From an uncultured archaeon (GTDB lineage: Archaea > Nanobdellota > Nanobdellia > Pacearchaeales > GW2011-AR1): a stretch of 64,000 nucleotides of DNA. Each line of letters begins with the position of its first letter. The first letter of the stretch is position 1. Below the pieces are notes generated by a model. That model saw only the letters and a program-made list of their open reading frames with translations. It searched no databases and was not told where the DNA came from. The DNA is taken from the NCBI GenBank assembly GCA_902385625.1, contig CABMGE010000014.1:84-64083 (forward strand), read 5' to 3'. Shown piece after piece: positions 7,864-62,668 of this stretch. Both the position numbers and the translations under genes were made by a program.

Positions 7864-7893
7864 AACAATAATTATCTAAACAAATATATAACT

Positions 7894-8109: not shown

Positions 8110-8165
8110 ATAAATTACCTCTCTTATTAATTAACTAATAAAATCAATATATAAATATTATCTCC

Positions 8166-9029: not shown

Positions 9030-9091
9030 AAAATCATAAAGGAATTAGATTTTAATTAGTTTTTGTTCATAGAGAAATAAATATATATCAA

Positions 9092-9820: not shown

Positions 9821-9853
9821 ACTTAAACATTTAAATTAAAAAAATATAACTTT

Positions 9854-10407: not shown

Positions 10408-10761
10408 TTACACAAGCATCTTAAGCCCATCGCCTGACTTTCTAGGAAGTATGTGCATATGAACATGAGGAACAATTTGTCCAGCAACCTCGCCATTATT
10501 AAAAATAAAGTTAAAACCTTCTGCCTTTCCTTGTTTTACCAAATCAAGGGAAACATTCTTAACAGCATCCATAAGTTCACAGCCAAGACTTGTTGGAGTA
10601 TCAAGAAGAGTTTTAAAGTGATCTTTGGCAATAACAAGTGTATGACCTGGAGTTTTTGGATTAATATCTAAAATAGCAATAAACTTATCATCTTCATAAG
10701 TTTTAGTTGAAGGGATTTCTCCTCGAATAATCTTACAAAATACACAATCTTTATTATCCAT
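10408..10761 (-). CDS. HIT-family (histidine triad) nucleotide hydrolase
   Basis: 117 aa with CVFCKII...GHTLVI...VPHVHMHILPR (HxHxHxx triad). Confidence 0.9.
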   Translation of the reverse strand: MDNKDCVFCKIIRGEIPSTKTYEDDKFIAILDINPKTPGHTLVIAKDHFKTLLDTPTSLGCELMDAVKNVSLDLVKQGKAEGFNFIFNNGEVAGQIVPHVHMHILPRKSGDGLKMLV

Positions 10762-10796: not shown

Positions 10797-10867
10797 GGGC
10801 CTATTGTTCAGTGGTAGAATGCTCGGCTGGCAGTCGAGAGGCTCGAGTTCGATTCTCGATAGGTCCA
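10797..10867 (+). tRNA. tRNA-Ala (GGC)
   Basis: Hand-folded: acceptor GGGCCTA/TAGGTCC with the G3:U70 alanine identity pair, anticodon stem CTCGG/TCGAG, loop CTGGCAG, T arm TCGAG-TTCGATT-CTCGA. Confidence 0.9.
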
Positions 10868-18619: not shown

Positions 18620-19460
18620 AAAAATGTTATTGTTACATATCCAGGCCCTTTGTTTATTCCGGCACTATTATTCTGATCGATTCCTGAATTATAAGAGCCT
18701 CCTCCGCCCCCATAACCAGAGTCATAAGATCCTCCTCAACCAGAGTATCCTCCGCCTCCGCCTGCTCCTGCACATCCTGTTCCACCTCCGCCCCCAAATC
18801 CCCCTAAAGGAACAAATTCACATGAACCTTCTCCACCAAGACCTCCATTTAAAAAAGATTTTGCAACTTCTGTTGCATCAATAGTTCCACAATCTGTTAT
18901 TCCTCCGTCACTAAAAAATCCAGCACCCTGTCCTGCACAACTTTTAGAACCAGAGTATCCGCAAACACCTGATCCATACCCATTAATCCCTCCAGGACAT
19001 CCAGTCTGACTAGTTCCTCCTGAAGAATTTATAAGTGCATTTGCAAAAATACTGCTTCCTGTATAAGACATTCCCCCGCCGCCACCTGCAATAACTAAGA
19101 TAGATGAATTATCATTATATGGAGACCTGACAACAAAACTTCCACCTCCACCTCCTCCGCCATAATAACCAGTGCCAGAAGGCATCTGTCCAACTAATAT
19201 TTTAATAACTTCTCCCCGATTTAAAGAAAAAGTTCCTTTCATTCTAGATCCATTACCACTTGGATTGAGATTCTTATCTGTTCCAGCAGCACCAAATGCT
19301 TCAATGGTATAAAGTCCTGTTGCAGGAACAGTAAAGTTTTGCGTCCCATTTCCAACTGCAACAAGGCCTTGTAATGTTGTTCCATTATAAAAAAGAGTAC
19401 AATTATTCTGAGTCGGCCCTAAATATCCTGTTGCATTGCAGGTTGTAAAATTATAGATAA
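18620..19460 (-). other. ALK/LTK-like TNF-like + glycine-rich domain, copy 4 (contains the in-frame TGA)
   Basis: IYNFTTCNATGYLGPTQNNC...NGTQNFTVPATGLYTIEAFGAAGTD...ILVGQM...GGGGGGSFVV...LVIAGGGGG...GGFGGGGGTGCAGAGGGGGYSG*GGSY... Confidence 0.7.
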
Positions 19461-45758: not shown

Positions 45759-47622
45759 ATTTTATATTAAGTCCACTTGTCTCAATTTTATTATAATTTA
45801 TCTGTAGATCCTCGATTTTTGCAGGCCTTCCAAATTTCTCAGGACTAATTATTATACTCTTTGCACCTTGAAGTTCAGATTCAGCAATATAATACTTTTC
45901 TTTTCCTCCGCCTGAAACAGCAGAACTAATCACCTGATCAGGAACAGTCATATCAAAACATTTTCTTTCGGTAGCACCAAAAATTCCAGAGATACCTGAA
46001 CTAGGAGCATCAACACATTTTTGAGTTGTACTTCCCTTTAAATTAAAATTTGTATTTGAATAGATATAAGCTTTTATTTCATACTGGCCTTCAGTTAATT
46101 CAATTTGTTTTTGATCTGGATAAGAAACACTTATAGAGTCAGTTCCATTTTCTTTCATAAAATTAATAATTGCACGATCATCACTAGAAAGTCCTTCAAC
46201 TGAAAGAGCGAGTTTATATTTTTTGTCAAGAATAATCTGAACAACTCCAGGATTTATGCTTGAAACAATTTGTTTTTTTGCAGTGTAACCCTGGGCAGTT
46301 GCAATTATAAATCCATTTGAACATTGTGGGAATGGAGCAGTTAAACTTGCTTCTCCACTTTTAATCAAGGTTTTTCCAATTCCACAAGAAGTATCAAAAC
46401 ACTTAAAATTAATATTTGCTTCAACAGGATTTAGATTACTATTAAAAGTATAAACAGTCATATTAGTGAGTTTATATTTACAAAGTTCAGGAACAACATC
46501 AATAAGTCCCTGGCCACTGGTATAATTTCTCGGCTGATTTTGGTGAATAAAAACCACCATAGGAAACTGAAATATTTCATCATTATAATATAATTGAACT
46601 AAAACAGGATACCCGAGATCATAAACAAAATGATAAGTAGTATAGCAAAAACCAAGCATCCCCATTCCCTCTTGCATCCCAACAGGATCAGCCTTTAAAA
46701 ATCCAGAATCCGATGGACTAATCTCCATTTTTGTAGGCCAAACTCTTGAATAAAGGAAATTCACATTTGCACTAACCTTTTCTCCAACATCCTGCACAAA
46801 ATATTTATTTTCCTCTTTTGAGAGTTTATAATAAGTTCCCTTAAGTTTTATTGCACCAGTATTTGCTTCAAGAGCATTCATCAAATTCTCTCTTACCTCA
46901 TCAACACTCCAAATTTTAGGACTGCAAGAAATCTCAGTTCCGTCAACAGGAGCATAAAGTCTCAGTGCATCAATTCCATAATTCTCTAAAAAAGAACTTT
47001 GTTTTTCATGATTATAAATCTTCAATGCAAGATTATAGAATTTTCCAAGATTAGAATTTACATCTCGCGTGTGAGTTTTAGCAGTCCAGGTAGTATTACC
47101 AAAAACAATTTCAATATCCTGTTTTACATTAACTCCAATAGAATTATCATTTACAATACTGTCTACTTCTTTTACATCACCGAGATTTACAACAAATCCT
47201 TGCTGTATAAATCTATCAAAATTGCAACTATTGATGTTTTTTTTAATATAATCATTTAATTGAACTTGCATTCTTTCTTTAGTTGGAACTTGCTCTTTTA
47301 TAACTCCATTTCCAGAAATATAATACCAATAAGGTATTCCCATTCCAAGAAAATTTAACTGTGATGAAAAAGGCATATACTCACTTCCAGGAGAGAAATT
47401 AGGGTTCTCAATATATCCTCCAGTTTGGCCTAAAATCAAAGCCCCTTCTTTTGCAGTATTATCCATGCAGTTTAAATAATAAGAATAAACAGGTTCAATA
47501 TCTCTCGGAATACTCGAGCTATTATTTCCCCTAAGTACAAAATAGGCTATAAGCCCAACAATAATTACAATCGCAATTATAATAAAAATAGTTACCTGTG
47601 ACTTTTTATGCAATCCCCTCAT
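45751..47622 (-). CDS. Membrane-anchored protein of unknown family, possibly with a class III (pilin-like) signal peptide
   Basis: The track ORF starts at a GTG (47691). I prefer the ATG at 47622, which is preceded by GAGGAG. N-terminus MRGLHKKSQVTIFIIIAIVIIVGLIAYFVL. Its stop overlaps the start of the 2043-aa gene by 8 nt. Confidence 0.7.
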   Translation of the reverse strand: MRGLHKKSQVTIFIIIAIVIIVGLIAYFVLRGNNSSSIPRDIEPVYSYYLNCMDNTAKEGALILGQTGGYIENPNFSPGSEYMPFSSQLNFLGMGIPYWYYISGNGVIKEQVPTKERMQVQLNDYIKKNINSCNFDRFIQQGFVVNLGDVKEVDSIVNDNSIGVNVKQDIEIVFGNTTWTAKTHTRDVNSNLGKFYNLALKIYNHEKQSSFLENYGIDALRLYAPVDGTEISCSPKIWSVDEVRENLMNALEANTGAIKLKGTYYKLSKEENKYFVQDVGEKVSANVNFLYSRVWPTKMEISPSDSGFLKADPVGMQEGMGMLGFCYTTYHFVYDLGYPVLVQLYYNDEIFQFPMVVFIHQNQPRNYTSGQGLIDVVPELCKYKLTNMTVYTFNSNLNPVEANINFKCFDTSCGIGKTLIKSGEASLTAPFPQCSNGFIIATAQGYTAKKQIVSSINPGVVQIILDKKYKLALSVEGLSSDDRAIINFMKENGTDSISVSYPDQKQIELTEGQYEIKAYIYSNTNFNLKGSTTQKCVDAPSSGISGIFGATERKCFDMTVPDQVISSAVSGGGKEKYYIAESELQGAKSIIISPEKFGRPAKIEDLQINYNKIETSGLNIKFE

Positions 47623-47809
47623 TTTTTCTCCTCTTTTACCTATCACTAAAATAATAAAACACCATATATAAAGATTATCAAACAAGAACACAAGTCAGGA
47701 TATTTTCCCTAAAATTGCATATCCTACCAATTCAAGTATTTCCCTAAGTTTATGTATAGAATTAATACTTAGAGTAGGAGGAATACTTGAGATCCCCATT
47801 AGAAAAATA

Positions 47810-48737: not shown

Positions 48738-49550
48738 ATGGCAGCACAAAAACAAACAAAAGTAATAACCAGAAGAAGAAAATTTATTGATGTAGAAATT
48801 CCAGTAATAAGATCAAAAATAGAGTTAATTGGAAATACTGCAAAAGAACTTGAGAACAGAACAATAAAACTTGATTTGACAAGACAATTAAAGGGAAAAA
48901 GCGTCGATACAATTCTGAAAGTAAGAATGGAAAATGATAAGCCAGTTGCACATCCAATCAAAATAAAACTTATGCCTTATTTTATAAGAAGAATGATAAG
49001 AAAAAGAATAAGTTATGTTGAAGACTCATTCACAACTCCTTCTCAGGAAAGTATGTTGATAATAAAACCATTCTTAATAACAAGAAACAAGGTTTCAAAG
49101 GCAATAAGAAAAACATTAAGAAATAAATGCAAAAACTGGATTGAAGATTATATCGCAGAAAAGAAAGATTCAGAAATATTCTCAGAAATACTTTCAAACA
49201 GAATGCAAAAACCTCTTTCATTATATTTGAAAAAAACTTATCCTCTTTCACTATGTGAAATAAGAGTATTAGAAATTGTAAGGCCGCTCAGACCTGAAGA
49301 AGTTCCAAAAATAAAAGAAAAGCCAAAGAAAGAAGAAAAAGTTGAAGAAGAATTCATAGACCAAATGAAAGAAATAGAAGAAGAAATGATTAAAAAAGCA
49401 GAACAGGAAATTAAAAATACTCAGGAAAAAGCAACAAATGTGGAATCTTCAGATTCAGCAGAATCTGAACTTGTTCAACCATCAGAATCCACTAAAAAGC
49501 CAAAGAAAGAAAGAAAAACAAAAAAGAAATCAGAAGAAAAAGAGGAGTAA
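48738..49550 (+). CDS. rps3ae: 30S ribosomal protein S3Ae (eS1) with a Lys/Glu-rich C-terminal extension
   Basis: RRKFIDVEIPV...ELENRTIKLDLT...YFIRRMIRKRISYVED...NKVSKAIRKTLR...YPLSLCEIRVLEI fits the eS1 layout. Starts 1 nt after the L44e stop. Confidence 0.75.
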   Translation: MAAQKQTKVITRRRKFIDVEIPVIRSKIELIGNTAKELENRTIKLDLTRQLKGKSVDTILKVRMENDKPVAHPIKIKLMPYFIRRMIRKRISYVEDSFTTPSQESMLIIKPFLITRNKVSKAIRKTLRNKCKNWIEDYIAEKKDSEIFSEILSNRMQKPLSLYLKKTYPLSLCEIRVLEIVRPLRPEEVPKIKEKPKKEEKVEEEFIDQMKEIEEEMIKKAEQEIKNTQEKATNVESSDSAESELVQPSESTKKPKKERKTKKKSEEKEE

Positions 49551-49552
49551 AA

Positions 49553-50047
49553 ATGGCAATCGAACAAACACTAGTTCTGATAAAACCTGATGGAGTGCAA
49601 AGAGGACTTGTTGGAGAAGTAATAAGAAGATTTGAGCAAAGAGGCTTAAAAATTTCAGCCCTTAAAATGGTTCAAGCTGATGAAGAAACTTCTAAAAAAC
49701 ATTATACAGACGATATTTCAAAAAGAAGAGGAGAGCATGTAAGAAAACAGCTCATAGACTTCTTCAAAACAGGACCTGTTGTGGCAATGGTAATCGAAGG
49801 AGTAGATGCAATAGAAAATGTAAGAAAATTATGCGGAGCAACAGAATCAAAGGCAGCACTTCCAGGAACAATTAGGGGAGATTTTTCACATGTAAGTTAT
49901 TCTCATGCAGATGAAAAGAAAATAGTTGTAAAAAATATAATCCATGCTTCATCAAGTAAGGAAGATGCAAAAACTGAAATCTCAGTATGGTTTAACAAAG
50001 AGGAAATTCACACTTATAAAAGATCAGATGAAGAACATGTCTGGTAA
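49553..50047 (+). CDS. ndk: Nucleoside diphosphate kinase
   Basis: EQTLVLIKPDGVQRGLVGEVIRRFEQRGLKI...GTIRGDF...NIIHASSS (active-site His). Confidence 0.95.
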   Translation: MAIEQTLVLIKPDGVQRGLVGEVIRRFEQRGLKISALKMVQADEETSKKHYTDDISKRRGEHVRKQLIDFFKTGPVVAMVIEGVDAIENVRKLCGATESKAALPGTIRGDFSHVSYSHADEKKIVVKNIIHASSSKEDAKTEISVWFNKEEIHTYKRSDEEHVW

Positions 50048-50198
50048 ATAAATATTAGACCTTAGAAAAGTATTCTCCCAAGATTTCAGGATTATGATTA
50101 TATTCTCTTCGATAAATTTTAAAGTTAATTTAAAATTTATAGCTAAATTATCTTGCGAAACTCCTAATAAGTTGAGCAATTAATAAGAGCCAAAATAC

Positions 50199-50206
50199 TT
50201 TTAAAC
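50199..50206 (+). promoter_or_regulatory. TATA-like TTTTAAAC ~29 nt upstream of tRNA-Thr
   Basis: Spacing matches the other tRNA and mRNA promoters in the window. Confidence 0.4.
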
Positions 50207-50228
50207 CCAATTTATCTATCTAATTTAT

Positions 50229-50301
50229 GCCTCCATAGCTCAGTTGGTAGAGCGGCAGTTTTGTAAACTGTAGGTCGTCGGTTCGAATCCGGCTGGAGGC
50301 T
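50229..50301 (+). tRNA. tRNA-Thr (TGT)
   Basis: Acceptor GCCTCCA/TGGAGGC, D arm GCTC/GAGC, anticodon stem GCAGT/ACTGT, loop TTTGTAA, T arm GTCGG-TTCGAAT-CCGGC, discriminator U. Confidence 0.9.
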
Positions 50302-50305
50302 TTTT

Positions 50306-50330
50306 ATAATATTTGCAAAGCAAATATTAT
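50306..50330 (+). terminator. Perfect 11-bp hairpin (ATAATATTTGC-AAA-GCAAATATTAT) followed by a T run, 4 nt after tRNA-Thr
   Basis: The arms are exact reverse complements, and TTTTT follows immediately. Confidence 0.45.
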
Positions 50331-50452
50331 TTTTATTCTCAAATCAGGATTCAAAGTTCTAGATTTCGGTTAGAAGTGTTCAAAAACTTTTATGGTTTTT
50401 AAAACAGACAAAAATTTAGAATAAATTTTGAGTTCCGGCTGGAAGAGTTTTT

Positions 50453-50992
50453 CTAACTGCAAATAAGATCACATGAAAAACTGCAGTCATTACAACTGGA
50501 AAAACAAACCATTGGACTTTTAGAATTCGCTCCAAGAGTCTCTTCTCCATTTGAATTTTTTAGAATTGGAACAGCTTCAACACCAGTAATATTTAAAGAA
50601 ACATCCATTCCTGCTTGTGAAAAAATTATATCAACTCTTTTTACTCCTCCGCTATAATCTGGAAGAATATTTGAATCATTGACAACATAAGAATAACTCT
50701 TGCCACTATTGTCTTTTATATTATATTTAATTCCGATCAAACTATTTTCCTCAAAAATCTCTTTTACAAAAGTCCTTATATGTTTGTCTCCTGCATTTCC
50801 ACAAATCACAGAGTTTGAATCAAATTCTATTCTTGTATTGTTCAATTGAGAAGACAGAGAAGAATCAGGATTTGGAGAATTACTGCTAAGCATAAAATAA
50901 AGATTTATTATAATTGCAATTAAAACGATTAGTATACCTGCCATTAAAATTATAAGAATTAATCTTGAATTTGCTTTTTTTGAATTTATCAT
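50453..50992 (-). CDS. Small membrane protein with a C-terminal Cys cluster (cassette partner, copy B)
   Basis: 179 aa with an N-terminal TM and C-terminus CFSSCNDCSFSCDLICS. Paralogous to 54455-54985. Its start overlaps the upstream stop (ATGA). Confidence 0.7.
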   Translation of the reverse strand: MINSKKANSRLILIILMAGILIVLIAIIINLYFMLSSNSPNPDSSLSSQLNNTRIEFDSNSVICGNAGDKHIRTFVKEIFEENSLIGIKYNIKDNSGKSYSYVVNDSNILPDYSGGVKRVDIIFSQAGMDVSLNITGVEAVPILKNSNGEETLGANSKSPMVCFSSCNDCSFSCDLICS

Positions 50993-53900
50993 TTTCTTCT
51001 TTTTGAATTTATAGTTTTCCTAGATTTAATATGTTTCTTTTTATTCTTAGATCTTATGTAAATGTAATAAACAGCTGCGATTATAACTATTACTTCCATA
51101 AAATTAATAATACTAAAAAATCCAAGTTGACTTCCTTCACTGCAAGCTGCAGGCAAAGGACTTCTAACAATTCCACCGCTACAAACTCCGCTCAAGCATT
51201 TTTTTCCAGTAGAGCAAGCATCATCAGGACAAGGAGTATTATCAGGTTTATTTGCAATTACGCAGTTGTTGCTTACACAATTAGGCTGTTTACAAGGGTC
51301 AGTAGTTGTAAGCCCTGAACAATCAGCAGCAGTAGTACATGCAACAAATGGACAATCAATGTCCGCAGTAGCTCCACTATGACTACAAACTCCAGGACAA
51401 CAACCATCACTAACCAGAGGATTGCAAGTATTTATGCCAATGTCTAAAGGACATGTTGAATTACTTGTTCCATCGCATATCTCTTGAACATCGCATGAGT
51501 TAACACTATCTTTAGGTCTGCAAATTGTTGTAGTTGAATTCAAATCAGCAGGACAAGCCATTGAAGCTCCGTTACAAGTTTCATTCTTTCCGCAAATAGA
51601 ATTTCCATCAGCACGGCAAACAGTAGTAGCAGGCAAAGGAACACATGCACCAGTAGAATTACACTGACTACAAGTTCCATATCTTAATGCACATTGAGGA
51701 TTGGAATTGCATTCAATAATAAGAGTGCTTAAAGTAGAACTGCTAATACTCTGAGTCCCAAATTTGGATAAACAACAGGAAGCATTAGCAACAATAGGAT
51801 CAGGAGGTAAAACTAAACTGCAGTTATTTGATTTATTAGTGAGTATATTTCCAGCAGGACAACTAAAATTAGCAGTATTACCAATCCAATTAACAAAAGT
51901 GCATCCATTTCCAGCATTGATACAGTTTATTCTAGATCCATAATTGCATTTAACATTATAAGCAGATCCTGTAGAATTAAAAGCATATGAATCAGCAGAA
52001 CTAGAAACCAAAGAAGCACAACCAACACAACTATTTGTAACAGGATCGCAGTTAGTTCCTGCTGCAATACAATCAGTTATTTTATTTTCTGTAGTTGTAT
52101 TAGTACAAGTGCTAGAACTTGTTCCAGCATTATTACATGTAAAAGTTGTATAATTTCTATATAAATTTCCATCGGTCTTACAAAATGGATTTCCGATTAA
52201 ACCATCTGTTCCACAATCAGTATTGGAATTACAACGAACACAAACTCCTAAAGAACAAATTGGTTGACTTGGAGAAGAACATGGACTACTTGCACCCCAT
52301 TCAAGACAGGAATCAGCATCATAATTACCGCAAGTTTCAACATTATTTCCACTACATCTTTTTTGCCCAGAAGTAGTACAATCATTAGTACAGCTTAAAA
52401 CGCACTGGCCATTAGCAGGATTACAATTATATCCAGGAGAACAAGTCCCACAGCCATTAGGATTTCCACAACCATCATCACCACAAACTTTTCCCTTGCA
52501 AGAAGATTCAAAAGCCTGAATTTCCATTAGATTTCTCCAATCCCACCCGCCATTAATAAATGCATAAATTTTGCTGACTCCGACAATAGGCGTAGTAAAA
52601 CTTTCATTCACCCAACTCGTGCCACTACAAGAGTAACTTGAAGTTCTTATATCAGTTCCAGCACTGTTTTGAAAATGAACAACTCCAAAATTACCCTTAC
52701 TTCCACCACAAGCAATAGAATATTTGGAAATATCATAATTTCCACCTAAATTAATAGTAGCACTTGAATCAGCTGATTGCAATGAATTCCATATTTCATC
52801 AAACAATCCATTAGTAATAAGAGAAGGACTTCCAGAACCAACAGGACTAGTTGTTACAGATTTTCCAAGAGCAATATTTCCAGAAACACAAACATTTGGA
52901 CAAGCAGGTCCACAAGGTAGCGTTCCTCCACAACCATCAGTCCAAGTTCCGCAACTTTTCCCAAGACTTGCACATGTTGCAGCATTACAACTTGGAGGAG
53001 GAGTAATAGTATCTCCACAATCATAAACACCAGGATTTGCTCCTCGATAAGGTACAGTATCAACAGCGCAAATAGTAGAAAGTTTTCCACCCCTGCAAAC
53101 AACAGCAAAATCATAATATCCAGTCATACTTCGATAATACCATGTTCCATCAAAATTAGCACCACCACGATATTTACAATAAGGAGCATCACCAGGTTCA
53201 GGAAGACTTGCAAAATCAACAGCTCCTGCAAAATTATCACAAGTATACATCCCATAATTAAGCCCTAAATTACCTGAGTATCTGGTGATATCAGCATCAA
53301 CGCAAAAACCAACCATTTTATTATTTCTGCAAACAACTGAAAAATCATTTCCACCATCCTGATCCCAAAAACCTCTTTGCCCATTAAAAAGTGAATTATC
53401 CCACTCCTTGCATAATGGAAGATTGCCTATATTTGCACCATACTCAACACCCCCATAAGTATCACAACTATGAAAATTTTTAATATCATAAGTAACATCA
53501 GTATTAACACAAAAAGTATCAAGTTTATTCCTGCATACTGCTCCAAAAAAACTATCACTAGGATCAGCAGTATAATCATTTTGATCACTATCCCCATAAT
53601 TAAACCAAGTTCCATCTACTAAATTAAAAGGAGGATTATTCCCATTAGTATTAGCTCTGCAGTAAGTTGTAATCGAAGAAGGTGATAAACTGCATTGACC
53701 TGTTGCGAAATTGCATGATTGACCTGAATCACAACCTCCTCCAACATTTCCGCAAAATCCATTGCATCCATTGCTTCCACATTGTTTGCCAGAACAGCTA
53801 GGAGCACATTGATAGTTTACAGCAAAATTATCAAAAATACCAGAACCAACACAACTACCACTTCCATAAAAAGTGATTGTAATATCTGAAGTTGAAACAG

Positions 53901-54414
53901 GTGAACTTGAACCAGCAATAGTAACCCCATCTGATTGATAAACTGTTAGAGTAGAACCAGTTCTTTTTATTCTAAATATTCCTGATGAAAAAAAGTTAGA
54001 AGAATATGATGCAACATTATTATTAATCCTTGCAATAAATGCCTCACCAGATCTTTGTGAACTATCAACATATTTTTCAATGGAAGCGCTAATTCCAGCA
54101 CCAGATACACTCATTCCAATAGAAGAACTAGATCCAGAACCACAACCTTGTCCTCCAATACTTATGCTAGAATAACTAACCTGCAAATCAAAATCACCAT
54201 TCATAACAAATTTAGAAGTGATTCCTCGAGTTATACCATCTATAGGGTGTGTTATTTTAACTCCTCCTGAAACAGAAGAAGCATCAGGGCTTACTGTCCA
54301 TAAATTAGAATCTATACCAGTGTCGAAATTATTATTAATTGTTATTGAACTAACAAAAACTACGTTAAATAAAACTAGTACTAAAAAAATACAAACACTT
54401 TTTCCTCTTTTCAT
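50989..54414 (-). CDS. Cys-rich surface protein (1141 aa): ConA-like head, 3 internal repeats, discoidin domain, Cys-rich stalk, C-terminal TM anchor
   Basis: Signal peptide MKRGKSVCIFLVLVLFNVVFVSS. Repeats ..VCRN(K/N)..(F/I)CV(N/D)(T/A)D... appear three times. C-terminal half is ~70% identical by eye to 55038-57707. Tail LGFFSIINFMEVIVIIAAVYYIYIRSKNKKKH. Confidence 0.8.
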   Translation of the reverse strand: MKRGKSVCIFLVLVLFNVVFVSSITINNNFDTGIDSNLWTVSPDASSVSGGVKITHPIDGITRGITSKFVMNGDFDLQVSYSSISIGGQGCGSGSSSSIGMSVSGAGISASIEKYVDSSQRSGEAFIARINNNVASYSSNFFSSGIFRIKRTGSTLTVYQSDGVTIAGSSSPVSTSDITITFYGSGSCVGSGIFDNFAVNYQCAPSCSGKQCGSNGCNGFCGNVGGGCDSGQSCNFATGQCSLSPSSITTYCRANTNGNNPPFNLVDGTWFNYGDSDQNDYTADPSDSFFGAVCRNKLDTFCVNTDVTYDIKNFHSCDTYGGVEYGANIGNLPLCKEWDNSLFNGQRGFWDQDGGNDFSVVCRNNKMVGFCVDADITRYSGNLGLNYGMYTCDNFAGAVDFASLPEPGDAPYCKYRGGANFDGTWYYRSMTGYYDFAVVCRGGKLSTICAVDTVPYRGANPGVYDCGDTITPPPSCNAATCASLGKSCGTWTDGCGGTLPCGPACPNVCVSGNIALGKSVTTSPVGSGSPSLITNGLFDEIWNSLQSADSSATINLGGNYDISKYSIACGGSKGNFGVVHFQNSAGTDIRTSSYSCSGTSWVNESFTTPIVGVSKIYAFINGGWDWRNLMEIQAFESSCKGKVCGDDGCGNPNGCGTCSPGYNCNPANGQCVLSCTNDCTTSGQKRCSGNNVETCGNYDADSCLEWGASSPCSSPSQPICSLGVCVRCNSNTDCGTDGLIGNPFCKTDGNLYRNYTTFTCNNAGTSSSTCTNTTTENKITDCIAAGTNCDPVTNSCVGCASLVSSSADSYAFNSTGSAYNVKCNYGSRINCINAGNGCTFVNWIGNTANFSCPAGNILTNKSNNCSLVLPPDPIVANASCCLSKFGTQSISSSTLSTLIIECNSNPQCALRYGTCSQCNSTGACVPLPATTVCRADGNSICGKNETCNGASMACPADLNSTTTICRPKDSVNSCDVQEICDGTSNSTCPLDIGINTCNPLVSDGCCPGVCSHSGATADIDCPFVACTTAADCSGLTTTDPCKQPNCVSNNCVIANKPDNTPCPDDACSTGKKCLSGVCSGGIVRSPLPAACSEGSQLGFFSIINFMEVIVIIAAVYYIYIRSKNKKKHIKSRKTINSKRRK
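52503..52900 (-). other. Discoidin / F5-F8 type C-like (galactose-binding-like) domain
   Basis: NIALGKSVTTSPVGSGSPSLITNGLFDEIW...SATINLGGNYDISKYSI...WRNLMEIQAFES. Confidence 0.6.
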
Positions 54415-54454
54415 TATTAATTAATCAAGGGTTACCTATTTAAAAGAGTTGCTA

Positions 54455-54985
54455 TTAAGGAGAATTAGTGCATATAAAATCACATGAAAGACTGCACTCA
54501 TCACAACTAGAGTAACAAACATCAATAATTTGAGAATTTTTTATAAAAACTTGCTTTCCATCAGAATCCTTAATTAAAAGAAAAACATCAAGAGAAGTAA
54601 TATCAGAAGAAGGATTTATTCCTGCAGAAAGATAATCAATATCAATTCTTTTTGTCCCGCCAGTAGAGTCTGGAAGTATTGAAGAATCATTATTAATATA
54701 AGAATAAATTTTACCATTACTATCCTTTAAAATAAACTTAATTCCAACTAAGTCCTGAGTTGGAGAAATTTCTTTAACAAAAGACCTTATATGTCGGTTG
54801 TTTCCTTCCCCACATATAATAGCTTTTGAATTAAATTCCACTAAATTATTATTTACAGAAGAGACTTTATCACTGTATAGGGTTTTAGAGATAAAATAAA
54901 TATTTCCAATTATAAATAACATTATTCCAATGCATAACAAAGAGAGAATTATAACTTCCCTTGATTTAAAATCTAGTTTAATCAT
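54455..54985 (-). CDS. Small membrane protein with a C-terminal Cys cluster (cassette partner, copy A)
   Basis: Start trimmed to MIKLDFKSREVIILSLLCIG by analogy with its paralog. C-terminus CYSSCDECSLSCDFICTNSP. Confidence 0.7.
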   Translation of the reverse strand: MIKLDFKSREVIILSLLCIGIMLFIIGNIYFISKTLYSDKVSSVNNNLVEFNSKAIICGEGNNRHIRSFVKEISPTQDLVGIKFILKDSNGKIYSYINNDSSILPDSTGGTKRIDIDYLSAGINPSSDITSLDVFLLIKDSDGKQVFIKNSQIIDVCYSSCDECSLSCDFICTNSP

Positions 54986-55037
54986 CTTATAAACTTCCAC
55001 CTCACAAAACAAGAGCATAATTGCTTTTTTAAAATTT

Positions 55038-57707
55038 TCATATTTTTTTACCTCTATATTTTCTATGTTTCTTTTTAATTCTATGGTTTAAATAAATAAA
55101 ATATATGATCATGATTACAAAAACAACTTCAATAACATTGGTTAAGCTAAAAAATCCAAGAGGAGTTCCCTGAGTGCAAGATGCAGGCAAAGGACTTCTA
55201 AGAGTTCCACCAGCACAAACACCACTTGAACAAGTTTTTCCAGTAGAACATGGATCATCTCCACATGGAATCCCGCTAAGATCAACTATACTGCAAGTTC
55301 CTGAATTACAACTAGCTTGTTTACACTTTTCTGCTACAGATGGCTGTGTACAATCAGCAGCAGTAGTACAGACAATCAAAGGACAATCAATATCGGCATT
55401 AGCACCACTATGAGTACATGATCCAGGACAACACAGATCACTAACAAATGAGTTGCATGTAGTTAAACCTAAATCAGCAGGACATGAAAAGTTACTTGTC
55501 CCGTCACATACTTCTTGAACATCACAATAATTGCCACTATCTTTAGGCCTGCAAATTTTAGTAGTTGAATTCATATCTATAGGACAAACCATTGAAGCTC
55601 CATTGCAAGTTTCATTCTTTCCGCAAATAGAATTTCCATCAGCCCTACAAACAGTTGCAGCCGGCAAAGGAACACATGCACCAGTGCTATTACACTTACT
55701 ACATCCCCCATACCTTGAAATACATTGTGAATCAAGTTGACACTCAACAATCTTAGTGCTTTCGATACTATTTGTTTGGGATGAGCAACAACGAGCATCA
55801 GAGCCAGCAAAAATAATCATATTACAAAAATTAGACTTATTAGTCAATATACTTCCAGCAGGGCAACTAAAAAATGCATCAGTTCCAACAAATCCCTGAC
55901 TAGTGCAAGCAAGACCTGCACTAATGCAATTTAATCCAGAAATACCAAAATTACATTTAACAGTATATGTTGATCCACTGCTGTTATAAGCAAAAGCATC
56001 TGCAGAATGAGAAACTAAAGAAGCACAACCAACACAACTTCCTCCAGAACAAGATTGTCCACTAGTGCAGGTTTGATTAAGTGTTAAAATTGTTGAATTT
56101 GTACAAGAACTAGAAGCAGTTCCAGGACTGTTACAAGTAAAAGTAGTATAATTTTGATAAACACTTCCACTCTGGCATATTTTGTTTCCAATCCAGCCAT
56201 TAGTTCCACATTGAGAATTACTACTACATGCAACATTAAAGCATGCTCCCCCGGAACAGACTTGTCCAGGAGTACAAGAACTAGTTATACTCCATTCAAG
56301 GCAAGAATCAGCATCATAATTACCGCAGGTTTCAATACTGTTTCCGTTACATCTTTTTGAACCTGAAACAGTGCAATCATTAGTACAACTTAAAATACAT
56401 TGACCCGTAGCAGGATTACAATCATATCCGGGAGAACAAGTTCCACAGCTTCCCCCACAACCATTATCACCACAAACTTTTCCTTTGCAAGAAGATTCAA
56501 AAGCCTGAACTTCTTGCAGATTTCTCCAATCCCCGCCGCCAGTAATTGAAACATAAATTTTATTCACCCCAAAAATAGGAGTTGTAAAACTTTCATTTAC
56601 AATATTATTATAACAAGAATAATGTGAATGACTAATCTCTGCGCCTGCACTATTTTGAAAATAAACAGTCCCAACATTTCCTCCACCCATACCCACACAA
56701 GCAATGGAATATTTAGAAATATCATAATTTGCACCCAAATTAATAGTAGCGCTTGAATCTGTTGAAGTCTCAGCACTCCACCAGGATCCAAAAAGTCCGT
56801 CTGTAATAAGTGAAGGACTGTTTTTTCCTACCGGACTAGTTGTTGCAGATTTCCCAAGAGCAATATTCCCAGAAACACAAACATTTGGACAAGCACCCCC
56901 GCAATTAATTGTTCCTCCAGAACCATCAACCCAGGTTCCACAACTTTTTCCAAGACTTGCACATGTTGCACGAATAGATCCTATGCACTTTAAAGAATCA
57001 TCACTAGGATTAATATGAGAATAAGACCATGTACCTCCAGAAGGCGTATAAATCCAACTGTTTGAACCAGTATCCCAATAAGTAACACCATATCCGTGAC
57101 ACCAAACATTAGGTTTAAAATCATAAAGAGAAGCATATCCTAGACTTTTACAAAGTTTTTGTCCTGTGACAATATCTCCTGAATATTGATTTTCACTTCC
57201 AAGATAAGGATAAAAACTGCCATAACTTGAATAAGGAACTGAAATTATATCTGCAGGATTTGTTGGATCAAGTGGAGAATAATCTCCGGGAACTCTATCA
57301 CTACAAGTAAGATCATTTAGAGTAGGATTATTTTTACAACCATCATAACCCCAATATCTCATATTGTGTCCGCTTAAAGTAATCCATGTAGAAGAAGGAA
57401 TGTCCCAATAAACAGAATCTGTATCAGCCCCCCAATTACAAACCGCCCAGGGCATATCCATACTTACTGCAAGAGGTTTTGCACCTCCAGTAAGAAGAGA
57501 ACATGCTTTTGTTGCAGTAATATAATCCCCATAAAGATACTTATTGCCATTATTAGTTATAGAAGATAATGCATTTGCAGTGTAATATAAATCATTTTCA
57601 CTAAAATATTGAGTAGCACTATTTACTTGAGGGATGAAACTAATTACAGATAAAAATATTAAAATTACAAATAACAAAGTACAAAAAAAATTTCTCCTCT
57701 TTTTCAT
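55038..57707 (-). CDS. Cys-rich surface protein (889 aa): distinct N-terminal head, discoidin domain, Cys-rich stalk, C-terminal TM anchor
   Basis: Signal peptide MKKRRNFFCTLLFVILIFLSVISFIPQVNSA. From ATCASLGKSCGTW onward it parallels the 1141-aa paralog. Tail PLGFFSLTNVIEVVFVIMIIYFIYLNHRIKKKHRK. Confidence 0.8.
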   Translation of the reverse strand: MKKRRNFFCTLLFVILIFLSVISFIPQVNSATQYFSENDLYYTANALSSITNNGNKYLYGDYITATKACSLLTGGAKPLAVSMDMPWAVCNWGADTDSVYWDIPSSTWITLSGHNMRYWGYDGCKNNPTLNDLTCSDRVPGDYSPLDPTNPADIISVPYSSYGSFYPYLGSENQYSGDIVTGQKLCKSLGYASLYDFKPNVWCHGYGVTYWDTGSNSWIYTPSGGTWSYSHINPSDDSLKCIGSIRATCASLGKSCGTWVDGSGGTINCGGACPNVCVSGNIALGKSATTSPVGKNSPSLITDGLFGSWWSAETSTDSSATINLGANYDISKYSIACVGMGGGNVGTVYFQNSAGAEISHSHYSCYNNIVNESFTTPIFGVNKIYVSITGGGDWRNLQEVQAFESSCKGKVCGDNGCGGSCGTCSPGYDCNPATGQCILSCTNDCTVSGSKRCNGNSIETCGNYDADSCLEWSITSSCTPGQVCSGGACFNVACSSNSQCGTNGWIGNKICQSGSVYQNYTTFTCNSPGTASSSCTNSTILTLNQTCTSGQSCSGGSCVGCASLVSHSADAFAYNSSGSTYTVKCNFGISGLNCISAGLACTSQGFVGTDAFFSCPAGSILTNKSNFCNMIIFAGSDARCCSSQTNSIESTKIVECQLDSQCISRYGGCSKCNSTGACVPLPAATVCRADGNSICGKNETCNGASMVCPIDMNSTTKICRPKDSGNYCDVQEVCDGTSNFSCPADLGLTTCNSFVSDLCCPGSCTHSGANADIDCPLIVCTTAADCTQPSVAEKCKQASCNSGTCSIVDLSGIPCGDDPCSTGKTCSSGVCAGGTLRSPLPASCTQGTPLGFFSLTNVIEVVFVIMIIYFIYLNHRIKKKHRKYRGKKI
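56492..56890 (-). other. Discoidin / F5-F8 type C-like domain
   Basis: NIALGKSATTSPVGKNSPSLITDGLFGSWW...SATINLGANYDISKYSI...WRNLQEVQAFES. Confidence 0.6.
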
Positions 57708-57877
57708 TATATTAAACTTTACCTCGCGAATTGAAAATCATTTAGATTTTCATATAATAATCAGTATTTTCCTATTTAAAATAGTTACCATGGATCAGGA
57801 TAGACTGTGATAAACAAAAAACATTGCAATAAAAACAGAAATAATAAAACATTAGTTAAGAGTTATTTTTCATTTTA

Positions 57878-58441
57878 CTATTCTTCATCAATAGCTTCTG
57901 CTTTTTTATCAATTACTAAAATATTTGCAATTTCTTCTGAAATATTTGCAACATCTCCTTTTTTAAATGGACCGAGCTTATTTCCATCAAGATCTAAAAA
58001 CTCCACTACATCTTCAATAAAGACAACCATCTTATTTTTTGGTTTATGTTCTTCATTATCCATCCCCTTTAGCATTTCATTAATAGTCTTATCAGATCTC
58101 TCAAGAGACTTCATTATTCCTTCAAATGCCTCCTTTTCCACAGCAAGCATATTTTCAAAGTCTCTTTTAGAAATCCCGGTCTCAGCAGCAACAAAAGCAA
58201 GTTCAAGAATCTTTTTCTTGCGTCTAAGCATTAGTTCCTTAAATATTGCAATTGAGTTTTCAAACTGTTTTTTAGTCTTCATAATAGTATCGGAGAAGTC
58301 ATCATCTTTCTTATTTGCAATCTCCTTCTTGTCTTTAAGATATGCAGCAACATCCTTGATAAAGTTTTTAGGAATTGGTTGGAGTTGCTCGCTATATCTC
58401 TCTTTTCTAAGTGCATCATAAAGTTCATTATAAGCGATCAT
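57878..58441 (-). CDS. GINS-family replication protein (Gins51-like)
   Basis: 187 aa. N-terminus YNELYDALRKERYSEQLQPIPKNFIKDVAAYLKDKKE and C-terminal beta-domain GNKLGPFKKGDVANISEEIANILV fit the archaeal GINS layout. Confidence 0.55.
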   Translation of the reverse strand: MIAYNELYDALRKERYSEQLQPIPKNFIKDVAAYLKDKKEIANKKDDDFSDTIMKTKKQFENSIAIFKELMLRRKKKILELAFVAAETGISKRDFENMLAVEKEAFEGIMKSLERSDKTINEMLKGMDNEEHKPKNKMVVFIEDVVEFLDLDGNKLGPFKKGDVANISEEIANILVIDKKAEAIDEE

Positions 58442-58508
58442 ATTTTGTATTTCTCATTATAATAAATTGATTTTGACTTAACTTTTTTAAAAAAAGTTAT
58501 TCCTTGTT

Positions 58509-58533
58509 GAAACTTTCTTAGGATAAGAAAGTT
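58509..58533. other. Perfect 11-bp hairpin (AAACTTTCTTA-GGA-TAAGAAAGTTT) between the phosphatase and GINS genes
   Basis: The arms are exact reverse complements. An A/T palindrome lies adjacent at about 58478-58498. Confidence 0.45.
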
Positions 58534-58637
58534 TGTTTTATTATAAGCTATCATTTTTTATTGCTCTTTTAGCCTAGCTATCTAAAAATAAAAACCCTTT
58601 ATAACTTTTATTGTAATATCAAGAACCACTAAAAAAA

Positions 58638-59216
58638 TTAGGCTTCAATAGTATAATGAAATATTGTATCATAATGAATTGTCCATTTAACTGCTTCATC
58701 TCCGGATTTTTTTTCAAATATTTTTCTAAATAGCCGAATCGAGTTTCCAGATGCAGAAATAGCAACATTAACCTTCTCAGATTTCACAAGTTTTCTTAAA
58801 TCAGAAACAAATGATTTAACTCGAATTTCAACATCTGCAAAAGATTCTCCCCCAGGAGGTCGGTTATTAAATCCCCTATGCCATAAATTAAATTGTTCTT
58901 CACCATATTTCTTAATTATTTCATCATGATGTTTTCCTTCAAGTTTTCCATAACTCCTTTCAATCATCCTTTTATCAGTTATTACTTTTTTACATTCAGG
59001 ATGATATCTCAAAACTTCTTTTAAGGTTTGTTTTGATCTCCCAAGTGAATTATCAAATGCAAAATCAATTTTCTTACCCTTGAGCCCTATTCCTAGAGCT
59101 TTTGCTTGACGAACTCCAAGGGGAGTTAAAGAACTATTCTTCCATCCAGTAAACATCTTATTCTTATTAAAATAAGTCTGCCCATGGCGGAATAAATAAA
59201 TATTATACTTAACCAT
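58638..59216 (-). CDS. Histidine phosphatase family protein (phosphoglycerate-mutase-like)
   Basis: IYLFRHGQTYFNKNKMFTGW (RHG motif)...GESF...SGNSIR. Confidence 0.8.
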   Translation of the reverse strand: MVKYNIYLFRHGQTYFNKNKMFTGWKNSSLTPLGVRQAKALGIGLKGKKIDFAFDNSLGRSKQTLKEVLRYHPECKKVITDKRMIERSYGKLEGKHHDEIIKKYGEEQFNLWHRGFNNRPPGGESFADVEIRVKSFVSDLRKLVKSEKVNVAISASGNSIRLFRKIFEKKSGDEAVKWTIHYDTIFHYTIEA

Positions 59217-60934: not shown

Positions 60935-62668
60935 TTATTTCTTTCTAAATTTAACAAATGCATAGATCATAGCAATTAATACCAAAAATCCTCCTGCAAA
61001 TGAAAGCGGATAATCTCCCAAAGCTCCGATTACAGCACCAGTTAAAGAAGATCTGCCAGTTATCTCAGATTTTGGACTTTCAGTTGGATAAGAATCATTT
61101 CCAGAAGTTTGTTTTTCAGGTTCTGCTTTTACCTCAGTGCATGATTGAACTTCAATTGGTTTTTTTGAATTAGGATCACAAAAATTTTCAGGATAACTAC
61201 AAGTTCTTGTTTGTCTCCCACTATTACATTCTCCCCAAGAACTGCATTTCCATTGTGTTGTACAAGAAGCAGAAGAAAAACCTCCACTGCCCCCTCCACC
61301 GCCTCCGCTACTTTGTGGAGAATCTGGAACTGAAGGTATTATAACATCCTGGGTTCTAACTGAAATATTAAATTCATCAGAATTTCTATCTAAGTTATCA
61401 ACTGCAACTGCATAAAAAATGTAGTAAGTTGAAGGAGAAAGACCTGCATAAGTATAACTAGAAGTCGGACTTAAAACAAGAGTCCAATTTAATTTATTCA
61501 TGCTTAGCAAATATCCTTTAATAATAGAGTTATTTTCAGGTGTAGCTGAAAAATATAATGTCACAGAGTCAGTTGTTGAAGTTGCAGTTAATGAAACAAA
61601 TTTAATAATATTTGTATAGATATTATGAACACATTGATTTCCAGGAGAGATTATCACGCAAAGATCTTCAGTTGAAGAATTTTTATCATCACAATCAAAG
61701 TTTTTAGTGCAAACAGGTGGTTGAATGCATGATGCATTATTGCAAGAGTAACTACAAGTTGAAATTGCCTTTTGATTTGTTTTATTTGAACAAGAGCTAG
61801 TATTAAGTCCAGGATTATTACATGTAAAAGTTAGATAATTTCTTGAGATATTTTTTCCAAGGCAAAAATTATCACCAAAAAATCCATCTGCACCACAATC
61901 AGAATTTTTAGAGCAGATTATAGTCTGGTTAGAATTAGTAACATTAGTCGAATTTGTTGGACTTGTTGAATTAGTCGAGTTAGAAGATGTATTTTCATTT
62001 GAAGTTATTCCGAGTTTAGCATAATCTGCACAATCCTTGAACAAATCTTTAGCATCCTGAGTCCAATAATTTGTTTGAGTTATCCCAAAAAAACAAATAT
62101 TTCCGCTAGAGATATCTCCGGTTGAGAGAGTACTTCCCTTGCCAATAAATGAAATAACATCTCCAAGATCTCCCGAACCAGTATTGTAAGTTTTTGCATA
62201 ACTTAATGTAGACGGGGCTTTACTTGACTTTCCAAGATAATAATAAAAAAGATAATCAGTATAATTATCTTTAACTGAATTATAAACAGTCAGGTTTTTT
62301 CCTTCAAAATCAACTTGCATTGGAATTGTTAAGCTTAATTTGCTGACCCCATTTGTATTTGTAATTCCAAATTTGTTTCCAAAATAATGATTCATAATAA
62401 TTGCATTATAATTTTTAACTGGAATAGGCTGGCTGAAATATTCATCACCAATAAATATTATTTTATAGGAGGATAAATTCTTTGAAATAGAATCTTCAGA
62501 AATATAATCCACATGGAGATCTGATGAAGAAAGTAGATTTACCAGATTTTTATCAATTCTTGCCTTATTTTTATAAATATAGGCTATATCAGAAGCATAA
62601 ACAAATCCAATAACTGAAGTAATTGAAAAAAATATAACTAACAATATGAAAATATTTTTTATAACCAT
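60935..62668 (-). CDS. Secreted Cys-rich protein with an FN3-like domain, Gly run, W/C-rich module and C-terminal TM + basic tail
   Basis: Signal peptide MVIKNIFILLVIFFSITSVIGFVYA. Module CSKNSDCGADGFFGDNFC...RNYLTFTCNNPGLNTSSC is shared with the 889- and 1141-aa proteins. WKCSSWGECNSGRQTRTC. Tail FLVLIAMIYAFVKFRKK. Confidence 0.75.
   Translation of the reverse strand: MVIKNIFILLVIFFSITSVIGFVYASDIAYIYKNKARIDKNLVNLLSSSDLHVDYISEDSISKNLSSYKIIFIGDEYFSQPIPVKNYNAIIMNHYFGNKFGITNTNGVSKLSLTIPMQVDFEGKNLTVYNSVKDNYTDYLFYYYLGKSSKAPSTLSYAKTYNTGSGDLGDVISFIGKGSTLSTGDISSGNICFFGITQTNYWTQDAKDLFKDCADYAKLGITSNENTSSNSTNSTSPTNSTNVTNSNQTIICSKNSDCGADGFFGDNFCLGKNISRNYLTFTCNNPGLNTSSCSNKTNQKAISTCSYSCNNASCIQPPVCTKNFDCDDKNSSTEDLCVIISPGNQCVHNIYTNIIKFVSLTATSTTDSVTLYFSATPENNSIIKGYLLSMNKLNWTLVLSPTSSYTYAGLSPSTYYIFYAVAVDNLDRNSDEFNISVRTQDVIIPSVPDSPQSSGGGGGGSGGFSSASCTTQWKCSSWGECNSGRQTRTCSYPENFCDPNSKKPIEVQSCTEVKAEPEKQTSGNDSYPTESPKSEITGRSSLTGAVIGALGDYPLSFAGGFLVLIAMIYAFVKFRKK

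Follow-up and report, generated by a model that had tools for sequence, protein, structure and literature searches.

What do two adjacent copies of a two-gene cassette in the genome of an uncultured, low-GC DPANN archaeon of Nanoarchaeota type encode: the subunits of one structure at the cell surface, or neighboring proteins that are merely inherited together? We addressed this question in a 64-kb window of contig CABMGE010000014.1 (GenBank assembly GCA_902385625.1), the window being the whole stretch of DNA that was analyzed. Four minus-strand open reading frames (ORFs) lie there between a GINS-like gene (57878-58441) and a tRNA-Thr gene (Table 1). They form two consecutive pairs, each consisting of a gene for a large Cys-rich protein with a distal head and a Cys-rich stalk (big1 or big2) and a gene for a small membrane protein (small1 or small2). 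A life attached to other cells is attributed to DPANN archaea, and the molecules of attachment are almost entirely unknown; this locus is a compact, conserved, and testable candidate, present in two versions with different heads. We favor the reading that the two paralogous operons encode a heteromeric membrane adhesin, with the small protein serving as its base or co-anchor close to the membrane, and we consider the chances that this reading is right to be about evenly balanced.

Two paralogous cassettes at one syntenic locus

All four ORFs were recovered as described in an earlier reading of the sequence alone (the sequence-only reading), which had placed two pairs on the minus strand and proposed that they are tandem paralogs. 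The paralogy held for both genes of the pair and for the DNA. Residues 247 to 885 of big1 align with residues 479 to 1132 of big2 at 64% identity over ∼650 amino acids (E = 0), small1 and small2 are 48% identical across 132 amino acids (E = 2e-45), and the DNA contains eight collinear blocks, ∼4 kb apart, that are 72 to 90% identical. The heads of the two large proteins, previously called unrelated, indeed show no relation at the BLAST level (E > 6). Equal synonymous divergence (pS, 0.48) in the stalks and the small genes fits a single old duplication of an entire cassette. These values permit coarse dating only, because synonymous sites approach saturation even in housekeeping genes compared between genomes (pS, 0.5 to 0.66).

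A later event may have been superimposed on this history in a relative. In L004 (related loci are numbered in this way), for which we examined 20 kb of a 1.36-Mb contig, the stalks of the two large proteins (3058-6498 versus 7113-10004) are 84% identical in amino acids with a pS of 0.30, compared to 57% identity and a pS of 0.57 for the small partner genes. This discrepancy suggests homogenization or gene conversion confined to the stalk-coding part. A small-protein tree did not resolve orthology between the cassette positions.

The small-protein family is extremely rare, with ∼10 sequences among 15 billion. A word-indexed search of 5.8 billion clusters returned the small-protein query and two others, and an exhaustive HMMER scan of 1.84 billion representatives returned four matches, including the query and a distant 438-amino-acid protein. 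The family occurs in 1 of the 185,579 species of a genome collection and at three metagenome loci. The closest named genome is that of the Nanoarchaeota archaeon isolate DeMMO1_8. NCBI labels big1 (VVB78227.1) and small2 (VVB78224.1) “Uncharacterised protein [uncultured archaeon].”

In all, we found eight cassettes from at least six genomes or assemblies. In every case with upstream sequence, a large Cys-rich discoidin-type gene lies immediately ahead of the small one, and five of the eight junctions are ATGA overlaps; one of these is the overlap previously noted in the second window pair, where the stop codon of big2 and the start codon of small2 share the four nucleotides. The sequence-only reading had called the small partner obligatory. 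Pairing does extend to every cassette with upstream sequence, but these represent one orthologous locus and are not independent cases. ARAGORN identified tRNA-Thr in the window and at L001, L002, L004, and L012. We conclude that the locus is ancestral and syntenic within a narrow clade of Nanoarchaeota whose genomes carry either one or two cassettes. The GC content of the cassettes (33 to 36.5%, versus ∼31% for the window) is like that of the window's other giant surface-protein genes, and this composition gives no sign of a foreign origin.

The picture of a conserved stalk with swapped heads applies within this one genome, where it results from the duplication, but not between genomes. The head of big1 is 68 to 71% identical to that of the first L004 large protein, whereas the distal stalks are the most divergent part of the large proteins when genomes are compared (28 to 30% identity). 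The discoidin-type domains are 58 to 61% identical between the window and L004 and 68 to 73% identical between the window and L012, the C-terminal anchor is the best-conserved part of the large proteins across genomes, and the flanking housekeeping proteins are 69 to 89% identical between the window and L004. Stalk identity within a genome is 64% in the window.

The proposal of a diversifying module is likewise borne out in part. Domains have been gained and lost, cassettes number one or two, and one large protein is anchorless; the head of the first cassette, however, is conserved. The first L004 large protein has a big1-type head, but additional CG modules and a β-rich insert take the place of the discoidin domain. 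In the L012 large protein, two discoidin-type domains are combined with C-terminal domains of PKD-like type, and there is no transmembrane (TM) anchor, yet a TM-bearing small partner is kept 18 nucleotides (nt) downstream of it, as seen in two independent assemblies.

The position of the cassettes next to tRNA-Thr, earlier taken as a sign of diversification, instead reflects ancestral synteny common to all related loci and is no evidence of mobility. A mobile or actively diversifying cassette inserted at tRNA-Thr, with heads swapped onto a conserved stalk, could account for the tRNA-Thr 3'-end-like fragments that several genomes have in the interval from the small gene to tRNA-Thr, for domain architectures that differ between genomes, and for L004 stalks that are more alike than their small partners. 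We nevertheless regard this as the weakest rival and scarcely credible. All genomes have the same flanks, GINS at one end and tRNA-Thr/NDK/S3Ae at the opposite end, the cassettes are not enclosed by the tRNA-like fragments, the conserved part is the cassette-1 head and not the stalk, and viral contigs contain no relative of the small protein. No reverse transcriptase or integrase was noticed in the ORF list or among the Pfam-scanned ORFs, a scan that was not exhaustive for the window, and positions 49000-59000 contain no template/variable repeats, only the collinear paralogous blocks. A diversity-generating retroelement target, of the kind represented by C-type-lectin-fold variable proteins in DPANN archaea, was rejected given the lack of a template repeat/variable repeat pair and of any noticed reverse-transcriptase-like ORF.

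Domain architecture of the large and small proteins

Inspection and hydropathy agree with the earlier assignment of both partners to the cell surface. The large proteins have a signal peptide, a long ectodomain with 73 to 90 Cys residues, one C-terminal TM segment, and a basic tail, and the small proteins have an N-terminal TM segment. Cys counts in the large ectodomains are a mixture of odd and even and thus uninformative about intermolecular disulfides.

The big1 head is internally duplicated, and its halves match one another (E = 4e-5). Sequence and head-profile searches with it gave no Pfam or PDB match, a homologue search with the head alone returned nothing, the query itself included, and an AlphaFold2 (AF2) model of residues 31 to 408, built from an alignment of window sequences only, was unusable (predicted local distance difference test [pLDDT], 36). 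The big2 head contains the three VCRN-type repeats noted earlier, each with VCR(N/G) and four Cys residues in ∼75 amino acids (pairwise E values of 1e-9 to 2e-4). The ConA-like jelly roll that had been placed in the same head was not recovered: Pfam gave nothing significant, and the sole match was a sub-threshold one to DUF1583 (E = 0.012). Full-length big2 searched against the 5.8 billion clusters matched only itself and big1. Because neither the head-only search nor the full-length big2 search gave an outside homologue, we consider the heads to be orphans. Searches of the full large proteins against PDB by sequence gave nothing useful.

The domain that follows the TCASLGKSCGTW linker is plausibly a discoidin-type carbohydrate-binding module, based on similarity that stays below thresholds. 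Pfam F5_F8_type_C and F5_F8_type_C_2 match three or four of the five domain copies at 17.6 to 20.1 bits (E = 1e-3 to 4e-3), compared to gathering thresholds of 28.2 bits for PF00754 and 27.8 bits for PF22633. A profile of the domain gave full-length, low-scoring alignments to CBM32 chains in PDB (E = 0.035 to 0.2), including NagH/NagJ-type enzyme modules of Clostridium perfringens and a sialidase carbohydrate-binding module, all of them sub-threshold. AF2 reached a pLDDT of 50 to 73 in parts of the big1 discoidin-like region only. The discoidin-like domain of the sequence-only reading therefore keeps its place as a sub-threshold assignment (Pfam F5_F8_type_C E values of ∼3e-3 at 17.6 to 18.5 bits and the CBM32 structures just described).

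The stalk carries tandem units with the pattern GT-x-CR-x5-7-C(D/G)-x2-E-x-C-x-G-x4-5-CP-x-D, numbering two per large protein in the window, five per protein in L004, and three in L002. By profile comparison, these units are homologous to disintegrin loops. A profile was built from 13 units, including 4 window units, and all 34 of its PDB matches are ADAM, snake venom metalloproteinase (SVMP), or disintegrin chains (E = 8e-10 to 4e-2), and the alignments fall on the disintegrin loop. The Pfam Disintegrin model (PF00200; cutoff, 35.1 bits) matches the two L004 proteins above its cutoff (49.5 and 55.9 bits) and the L002 protein (31.1 bits), big1 (16.4 bits), and big2 (16.2 bits) below it; most matches span only positions 47 to 75 of the 75 in the profile.

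In the disintegrin subdomain of ADAM and SVMP proteins, Ca2+-binding site III has the consensus CD(X)2(E/D)XCXG(X)4C(X)2(D/N) and holds a permanent structural Ca2+ that rigidifies the arm (PMC4885070). The exact consensus occurs four times in each L004 protein and once in L002, and each window protein has two near-matches, against ∼0.001 per protein expected by chance. One near-match is CGKNETCNGASM[VA]CP[IA]D, with Gly in place of the first Asp, and the other is CDVQE[VI]CDGTSN..CP.D, with one extra residue. The stalk units may thus be rigid spacer modules, probably stabilized by Ca2+ and related to the Da subdomain of ADAM and P-III SVMP proteins. The unit motif GT-x-CR-x5-CD-x2-E-x-C-x-G-x4-CP-x-D aligns residue for residue with the disintegrin loop and Ca2+-site III. 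Unlike in ADAM and SVMP proteins, most copies here correspond to the C-terminal half of the domain only, two to five units occur in tandem rather than singly, and there is neither a metalloproteinase nor a Cys-rich/hypervariable-region domain. A Pfam scan found no match to a metalloproteinase family in any large protein. Because that domain is missing, only half of the disintegrin domain is matched, and the units are tandem, these are not ADAM proteins. A literature search for disintegrin units in archaea, or for Cys-rich proteins in DPANN archaea or Woesearchaeota, found no relevant description.

Across six anchored homologues, the FF, N, E, Y, and Y positions of the C-terminal anchor are invariant. 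Archaeosortase/exosortase signals (PGF-CTERM, PEF-CTERM, and PEP-CTERM) are tripartite, with a short motif, a TM helix, and a basic cluster. The anchor resembles them in having a [GD]FF motif, a TM segment, and a basic cluster that are conserved while the remaining stalk diverges, but its basic tail is long (12 to 25 residues), and no NCBIfam CTERM model matched either the full proteins at E ≤ 0.1 or the isolated anchors at E ≤ 10. Without a CTERM match, we rejected a PGF-CTERM-type sorting domain.

A 577-amino-acid protein encoded elsewhere in the window, with a signal peptide and a C-terminal TM segment plus RKK anchor, has a ∼60-amino-acid Cys module (C..NSDCG.DG..G..C......NY.TFTCNNPG...S.C.N) in common with the big1 and big2 stalks (43 to 47% identity; E = 1e-10). 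Because this protein carries one, stalk modules are common to other surface proteins of the genome.

For the small protein, AF2 with a seven-sequence alignment gave a pLDDT of 80.9. In small2, the model consists of a helix (residues 5 to 36), a disordered Ser/Asn/Pro-rich linker (37 to 50), and a β-sandwich (54 to 165) that ends in the Cys tail. Foldseek matched this model only to generic immunoglobulin (Ig)-like folds (E ∼ 1e-3; TM-scores, 0.3 to 0.5), among them nanobodies, the Kir cytoplasmic domain, and viral membrane glycoproteins, and searches of Pfam, NCBIfam, and PDB profiles gave nothing significant. The C-terminal CxxxCxxCxxxCxxxC motif reported from the first inspection is invariant in all seven aligned family members. 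Together with C64, its five Cys residues make six invariant Cys in the ectodomain, and these would suffice for three disulfides. At its outer end, the TM helix likewise has two invariant residues, N30 and Y32. Because this helix is preceded by a basic segment (KKANSR) and followed by an uncharged one, the small protein is probably an N-in/C-out signal anchor.

A distant relative at L006 has the small-type TM segment and β-sandwich module fused to Cys-rich and Laminin_G_3 regions (hhalign probability, 97%, E = 9e-11; phmmer E = 3e-4). Two adjacent genes there both encode the β-sandwich module; in one it is followed by the Cys-rich and Laminin_G_3 regions and in the other by MopE-like Cys repeats.

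A candidate two-subunit adhesin and its rivals

In the adhesin reading, the large subunit would be a type I protein with, in order, a signal peptide, distal head, discoidin/CBM32-like domain, rigid disulfide-rich stalk with disintegrin-loop units, FF motif, TM helix, and basic cytoplasmic tail. The small subunit would be a type II (N-in/C-out) protein in which a flexible linker joins a single TM helix to an Ig-like β-sandwich, with a knot at the C terminus. The small gene would be cotranslated with the large one via the ATGA overlap or a close Shine-Dalgarno sequence, and the two products would assemble at the membrane, with the small subunit as base or co-anchor. The large subunit would then project lectin-like heads to bind glycans or proteins on the surface of a matrix or partner cell, and the two cassettes would provide two binding specificities. 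With the large basic tail and the small basic N terminus both in the cytoplasm, the complex would have the topology of a split two-TM hairpin.

Several observations point in this direction. A joint function is suggested by the retention of the pair, by its translational coupling in most cases, and by its duplication as one unit. Adhesion is suggested by the discoidin/CBM32 similarity, sub-threshold as it is, by the disintegrin-loop units of the stalk, and by the host-interaction role proposed for other lectin-type surface proteins of DPANN archaea. A role of the small protein as an anchor is suggested because the anchorless L012 large protein still has a TM-bearing small partner, and a role as a base because, in the distant relative, its module is the membrane-proximal base of a lectin-type protein. 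The invariant N30 and Y32 of the small protein and the N and E of the large anchor would also place polar residues of both TM segments at the same (outer) leaflet, and polar TM residues favor helix-helix association.

Other points count against the adhesin reading. All pairings belong to one orthologous locus in one narrow clade and are a single evolutionary observation, and most large proteins have their own TM segment, such that a co-anchor is not obviously needed. The head, with no Pfam or PDB match and an AF2 pLDDT of 36, leaves the term “lectin-like” unproven, and the discoidin assignment is sub-threshold. In the window itself, the Disintegrin scores of both large proteins are under the cutoff, and both kinds of unit deviate from the Ca2+-site consensus. 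N-glycosylation sequons are not enriched, and the proposed extracellular topology is to that extent not corroborated. If the pairing is real, the small family marks this class of adhesin and offers a handle for pull-downs; if not, the locus is one more lineage-specific surface-protein operon.

We also considered a more specific version, an obligate heterodimeric adhesion receptor in which the polar TM residues and the Cys knot would pair the subunits and the ectodomain would combine a discoidin domain with tandem Ca2+-binding disintegrin units. This would be an undescribed archaeal adhesion system, and we think it rather unlikely. Discoidin and disintegrin modules are otherwise characteristic of animal cell-adhesion proteins; if true, such a receptor would bear on the origin of the disintegrin module, by ancient shared ancestry or interdomain transfer.

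The restriction of every co-occurrence to one syntenic locus in one clade would equally be expected if the small protein were an independent small surface or pilin-like protein whose adjacency to the large gene was inherited without physical partnership. A weak match to Pilin_N (PF07790; 16.6 bits, E = 0.015) and the N termini of the distant relatives, whose KKSQ start and hydrophobic helix recall the class III signal peptides of archaea, also fit that explanation, which we consider unlikely. The Pilin_N score is under the threshold of 25.2 bits and concerns two of seven family members, and this weak match reflects the hydrophobic helix. The N termini (KKA-NSR-LIL and FKS-REV-IIL) misfit the class III motif, in which the hydrophobic helix comes immediately after a [KR]-[GA] cleavage site, and have a conserved K/R three residues past the putative site. 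In contrast to pilins, moreover, the helix is connected to the β-sandwich by a disordered linker of ∼14 residues. On these three grounds, a type IV pilin-like identity was rejected. Furthermore, the order and overlap of the genes and their joint duplication persisted in lineages whose stalks diverged to 28 to 30% identity.

The tail of the small protein raises a different explanation, that this protein is an extracytoplasmic thiol-disulfide helper (an oxidase, isomerase, or redox shuttle) that would serve its Cys-rich neighbor through the CxxC of the tail. Analogies exist in principle in the Ig-fold DsbD-alpha and in the flexible shuttle-cysteine arms of Erv/Ero1 enzymes. Consistent with such a helper, the tail is the family's most conserved segment, contains C-[ND]-[DE]-C, and in the AF2 model ends a β-sandwich on a flexible membrane tether, and the gene always directly follows that of a very Cys-rich secreted protein. 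However, the small protein lacks a thioredoxin fold and resembles no known oxidoreductase, the even number of ectodomain Cys residues (six) fits three structural disulfides, and translational coupling at a one-to-one ratio is more usual for structural subunits than for catalysts. The corresponding position in the distant relative, moreover, runs on into ordinary Cys-rich modules. We judge a redox helper to be decidedly unlikely.

By analogy with SlaA and SlaB, the pair could instead form a structural, S-layer-like lattice with the small protein as its membrane stalk. In the Sulfolobales, SlaA and SlaB are encoded in an operon, and the large outer protein is tethered by the small membrane-anchored one, SlaB being anchored C-terminally via a coiled coil. 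The cassettes share the operon of a large outer and a small membrane-anchored protein, the L012 variant without its own anchor resembles the tether logic, and the locus is conserved among housekeeping genes. Nevertheless, architecture and copy number vary widely between close genomes, which is unusual for a lattice protein, most large proteins have their own TM segment, and the window encodes several other giant surface proteins. Without any sequence or fold similarity to SlaA/SlaB or sequence likeness to known S-layer proteins, we find a lattice very unlikely.

Returning to the adhesin reading, the locus belongs to a known general class, the DPANN lectin-type surface proteins proposed for attachment. 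Lectin-type (laminin G [LamG]) surface proteins are expanded in DPANN archaea and have been proposed to function in host interaction (PMC5498576 and PMC7414124). In ARMAN Mia14 (PMC5498576), Undinarchaeota (PMC7414124), and Nanohaloarchaeota (PMC6642349), the giant surface proteins of these small-genome archaea are likewise large, lineage specific, multidomain, secreted or membrane anchored, and equipped with carbohydrate-binding-type domains. In contrast to the LamG proteins, those studied here have discoidin/CBM32-like domains, 8% Cys, and disintegrin-loop units, and they are strictly paired at the gene level with a small membrane partner, an arrangement that goes unmentioned in the available portions of PMC5498576 and PMC7414124. 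The features that stand out are the small Ig-like partner from an almost unique family, the tandem disintegrin-loop units, and the conserved novel anchor.

Feature coordinates, putative promoters, and neighboring genes

Table 1. Coordinates of the cassettes, their parts, and neighboring or related features (aa, amino acids)
Feature	Sequence	Nucleotides	Strand	Residues	Description
big1	Window	55038-57707	-	889 aa	74 Cys; putative type I membrane-anchored Cys-rich surface protein
big1 signal peptide	Window			1-30	
big1 head	Window	56970-57617	-	31-246	Trp/Tyr-rich; internal duplication, two halves of ∼100 aa each
big1 CG-rich linker and discoidin/CBM32-like domain	Window	56493-56969	-	247-405	Linker TCASLGKSCGTW..GGT..CG
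big1 disintegrin-loop-like units (two)	Window	55479-55649	-	687-709, 719-743	Contain CGKNETCNGASMVCPID and CDVQEVCDGTSNFSCPAD
big1 TM segment	Window			849-875	Basic tail follows
big1 C-terminal anchor	Window	55038-55163	-		End of juxtamembrane ..LGFFS, TM segment with N-x-I-E, basic tail KKKHRKYRGKKI
small1	Window	54455-54985	-	176 aa	Putative signal-anchored β-sandwich; C-terminal tail CYSSCDECSLSCDFIC; full ORF to 55018
big2	Window	50989-54414	-	1141 aa	91 Cys; paralogue of big1
big2 signal peptide	Window			1-23	
big2 head	Window	52981-54345	-	24-478	Unassigned β-rich region 24-204; CG module 205-244; repeats 245-478
big2 CG module and discoidin/CBM32-like domain	Window	52504-52980	-	479-637	
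big2 disintegrin-loop-like units (two)	Window	51448-51618	-	933-955, 965-989	
big2 TM segment	Window			1095-1120	Basic tail follows
small2	Window	50453-50992	-	179 aa	Putative signal-anchored β-sandwich; C-terminal tail CFSSCNDCSFSCDLIC
tRNA-Thr(TGT)	Window	50229-50301	+		ARAGORN; conserved downstream boundary of the locus
TATA-box-like TTTTAAATAGG	Window	57771-57781	-		∼69 nt upstream of the big1 ATG; putative promoter
TATA-box-like TTTTAAATAGG	Window	54435-54445	-		∼26 nt upstream of the big2 ATG; putative promoter
tRNA-Thr 3'-end-like copies	Window	50434-50447, 50309-50327			
tRNA-Thr 3'-end-like copies	L001	∼720-760			
tRNA-Thr 3'-end-like copies	L004	∼10575-10595			
tRNA-Thr 3'-end-like copies	L012	∼10635-10660, ∼10840-10860			
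Locus, gene order	L004				FtsY, His-phosphatase, GINS, 1146 + 189 aa, 963 + 186 aa, tRNA-Thr, NDK, S3Ae, L44e; both junctions ATGA
Locus, gene order	L012				GINS, 1121 + 193 aa, tRNA-Thr, CheY-like gene, NDK; single cassette; same proteins on short contig L003
Large protein without TM anchor	L012	6617-9982			C terminus also at L003 1-291
Partial loci	L002, L001, L011				Large-protein C terminus with the same anchor, then small gene; ATGA in L001 and L011
Adjacent genes, distant relatives	L006	6297-7613, 7638-9704			Common ∼50-residue N terminus KKSQANIITVVIIILVVM.GIVVLYNTVIPLLKSKGGEASL, nearly identical; same in L007-L009
CheY-like gene	L001	1023-1433			
CheY-like gene	L002	2392-2778			
CheY-like gene	L012	11112-11489			
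577-aa protein	Window	60935-62668	-		Signal peptide, C-terminal TM segment and RKK anchor
646-aa protein	Window	45751-47691	-		Overlaps the next gene
2043-aa protein	Window	39627-45758	-		
3830-aa giant protein	Window	18736-30228	-		Laminin_G_3 and Big_13 domains

Sequence inspection found the identical 11-mer TTTTAAATAGG ahead of both large genes. These copies are probably TATA-type promoters, one for each cassette, and the one at the second cassette would give a near-leaderless transcript. The start of small1 is likely the ATG at 54985, because an SD-like GAGGTG (55003-54998) precedes it by 12 nt and the alignment of homologues begins at the same Met.

Short copies of the tRNA-Thr 3' end, gcctccagcc(g/t)g on the cassette strand, recur between the stop codon of the small gene and the true tRNA-Thr in several genomes, often accompanied by the palindrome ATATTTGCTTTGCAAATAT, which is sited immediately 3' of the tRNA. 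These copies resemble att-type remnants left by integration at the tRNA or else duplicated tRNA trailer/terminator elements.

Gene content next to the tRNA differs among the relatives. A CheY-like gene of 125 to 136 amino acids, with no Pfam match on record, lies between tRNA-Thr and NDK at L001, L002, and L012; the window has only ∼180 nt (50047-50229) where the relatives have this gene. In L004, a 91-amino-acid DUF4190-like gene instead separates the small gene from the tRNA.

Elsewhere in the window, an overlapping minus-strand pair encodes proteins of 646 and then 2,043 amino acids, neither with a Pfam match, and is syntenic in L004 (623 and >2,006 amino acids). The N terminus of the 646-amino-acid protein (...KKSQVTIFIIIAIVIIVGLIAYFVL) has KKSQ and a hydrophobic helix, as in the L006 distant relatives, and may be a class III (pilin-like) signal. 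The window also encodes a giant protein of 3,830 amino acids with four Laminin_G_3 domains (E = 9e-76) and Big_13. This protein matches the ALK/LTK glycine-rich domain PF12810 above its cutoff (E = 1.3e-12), a domain known from animal receptor tyrosine kinases.

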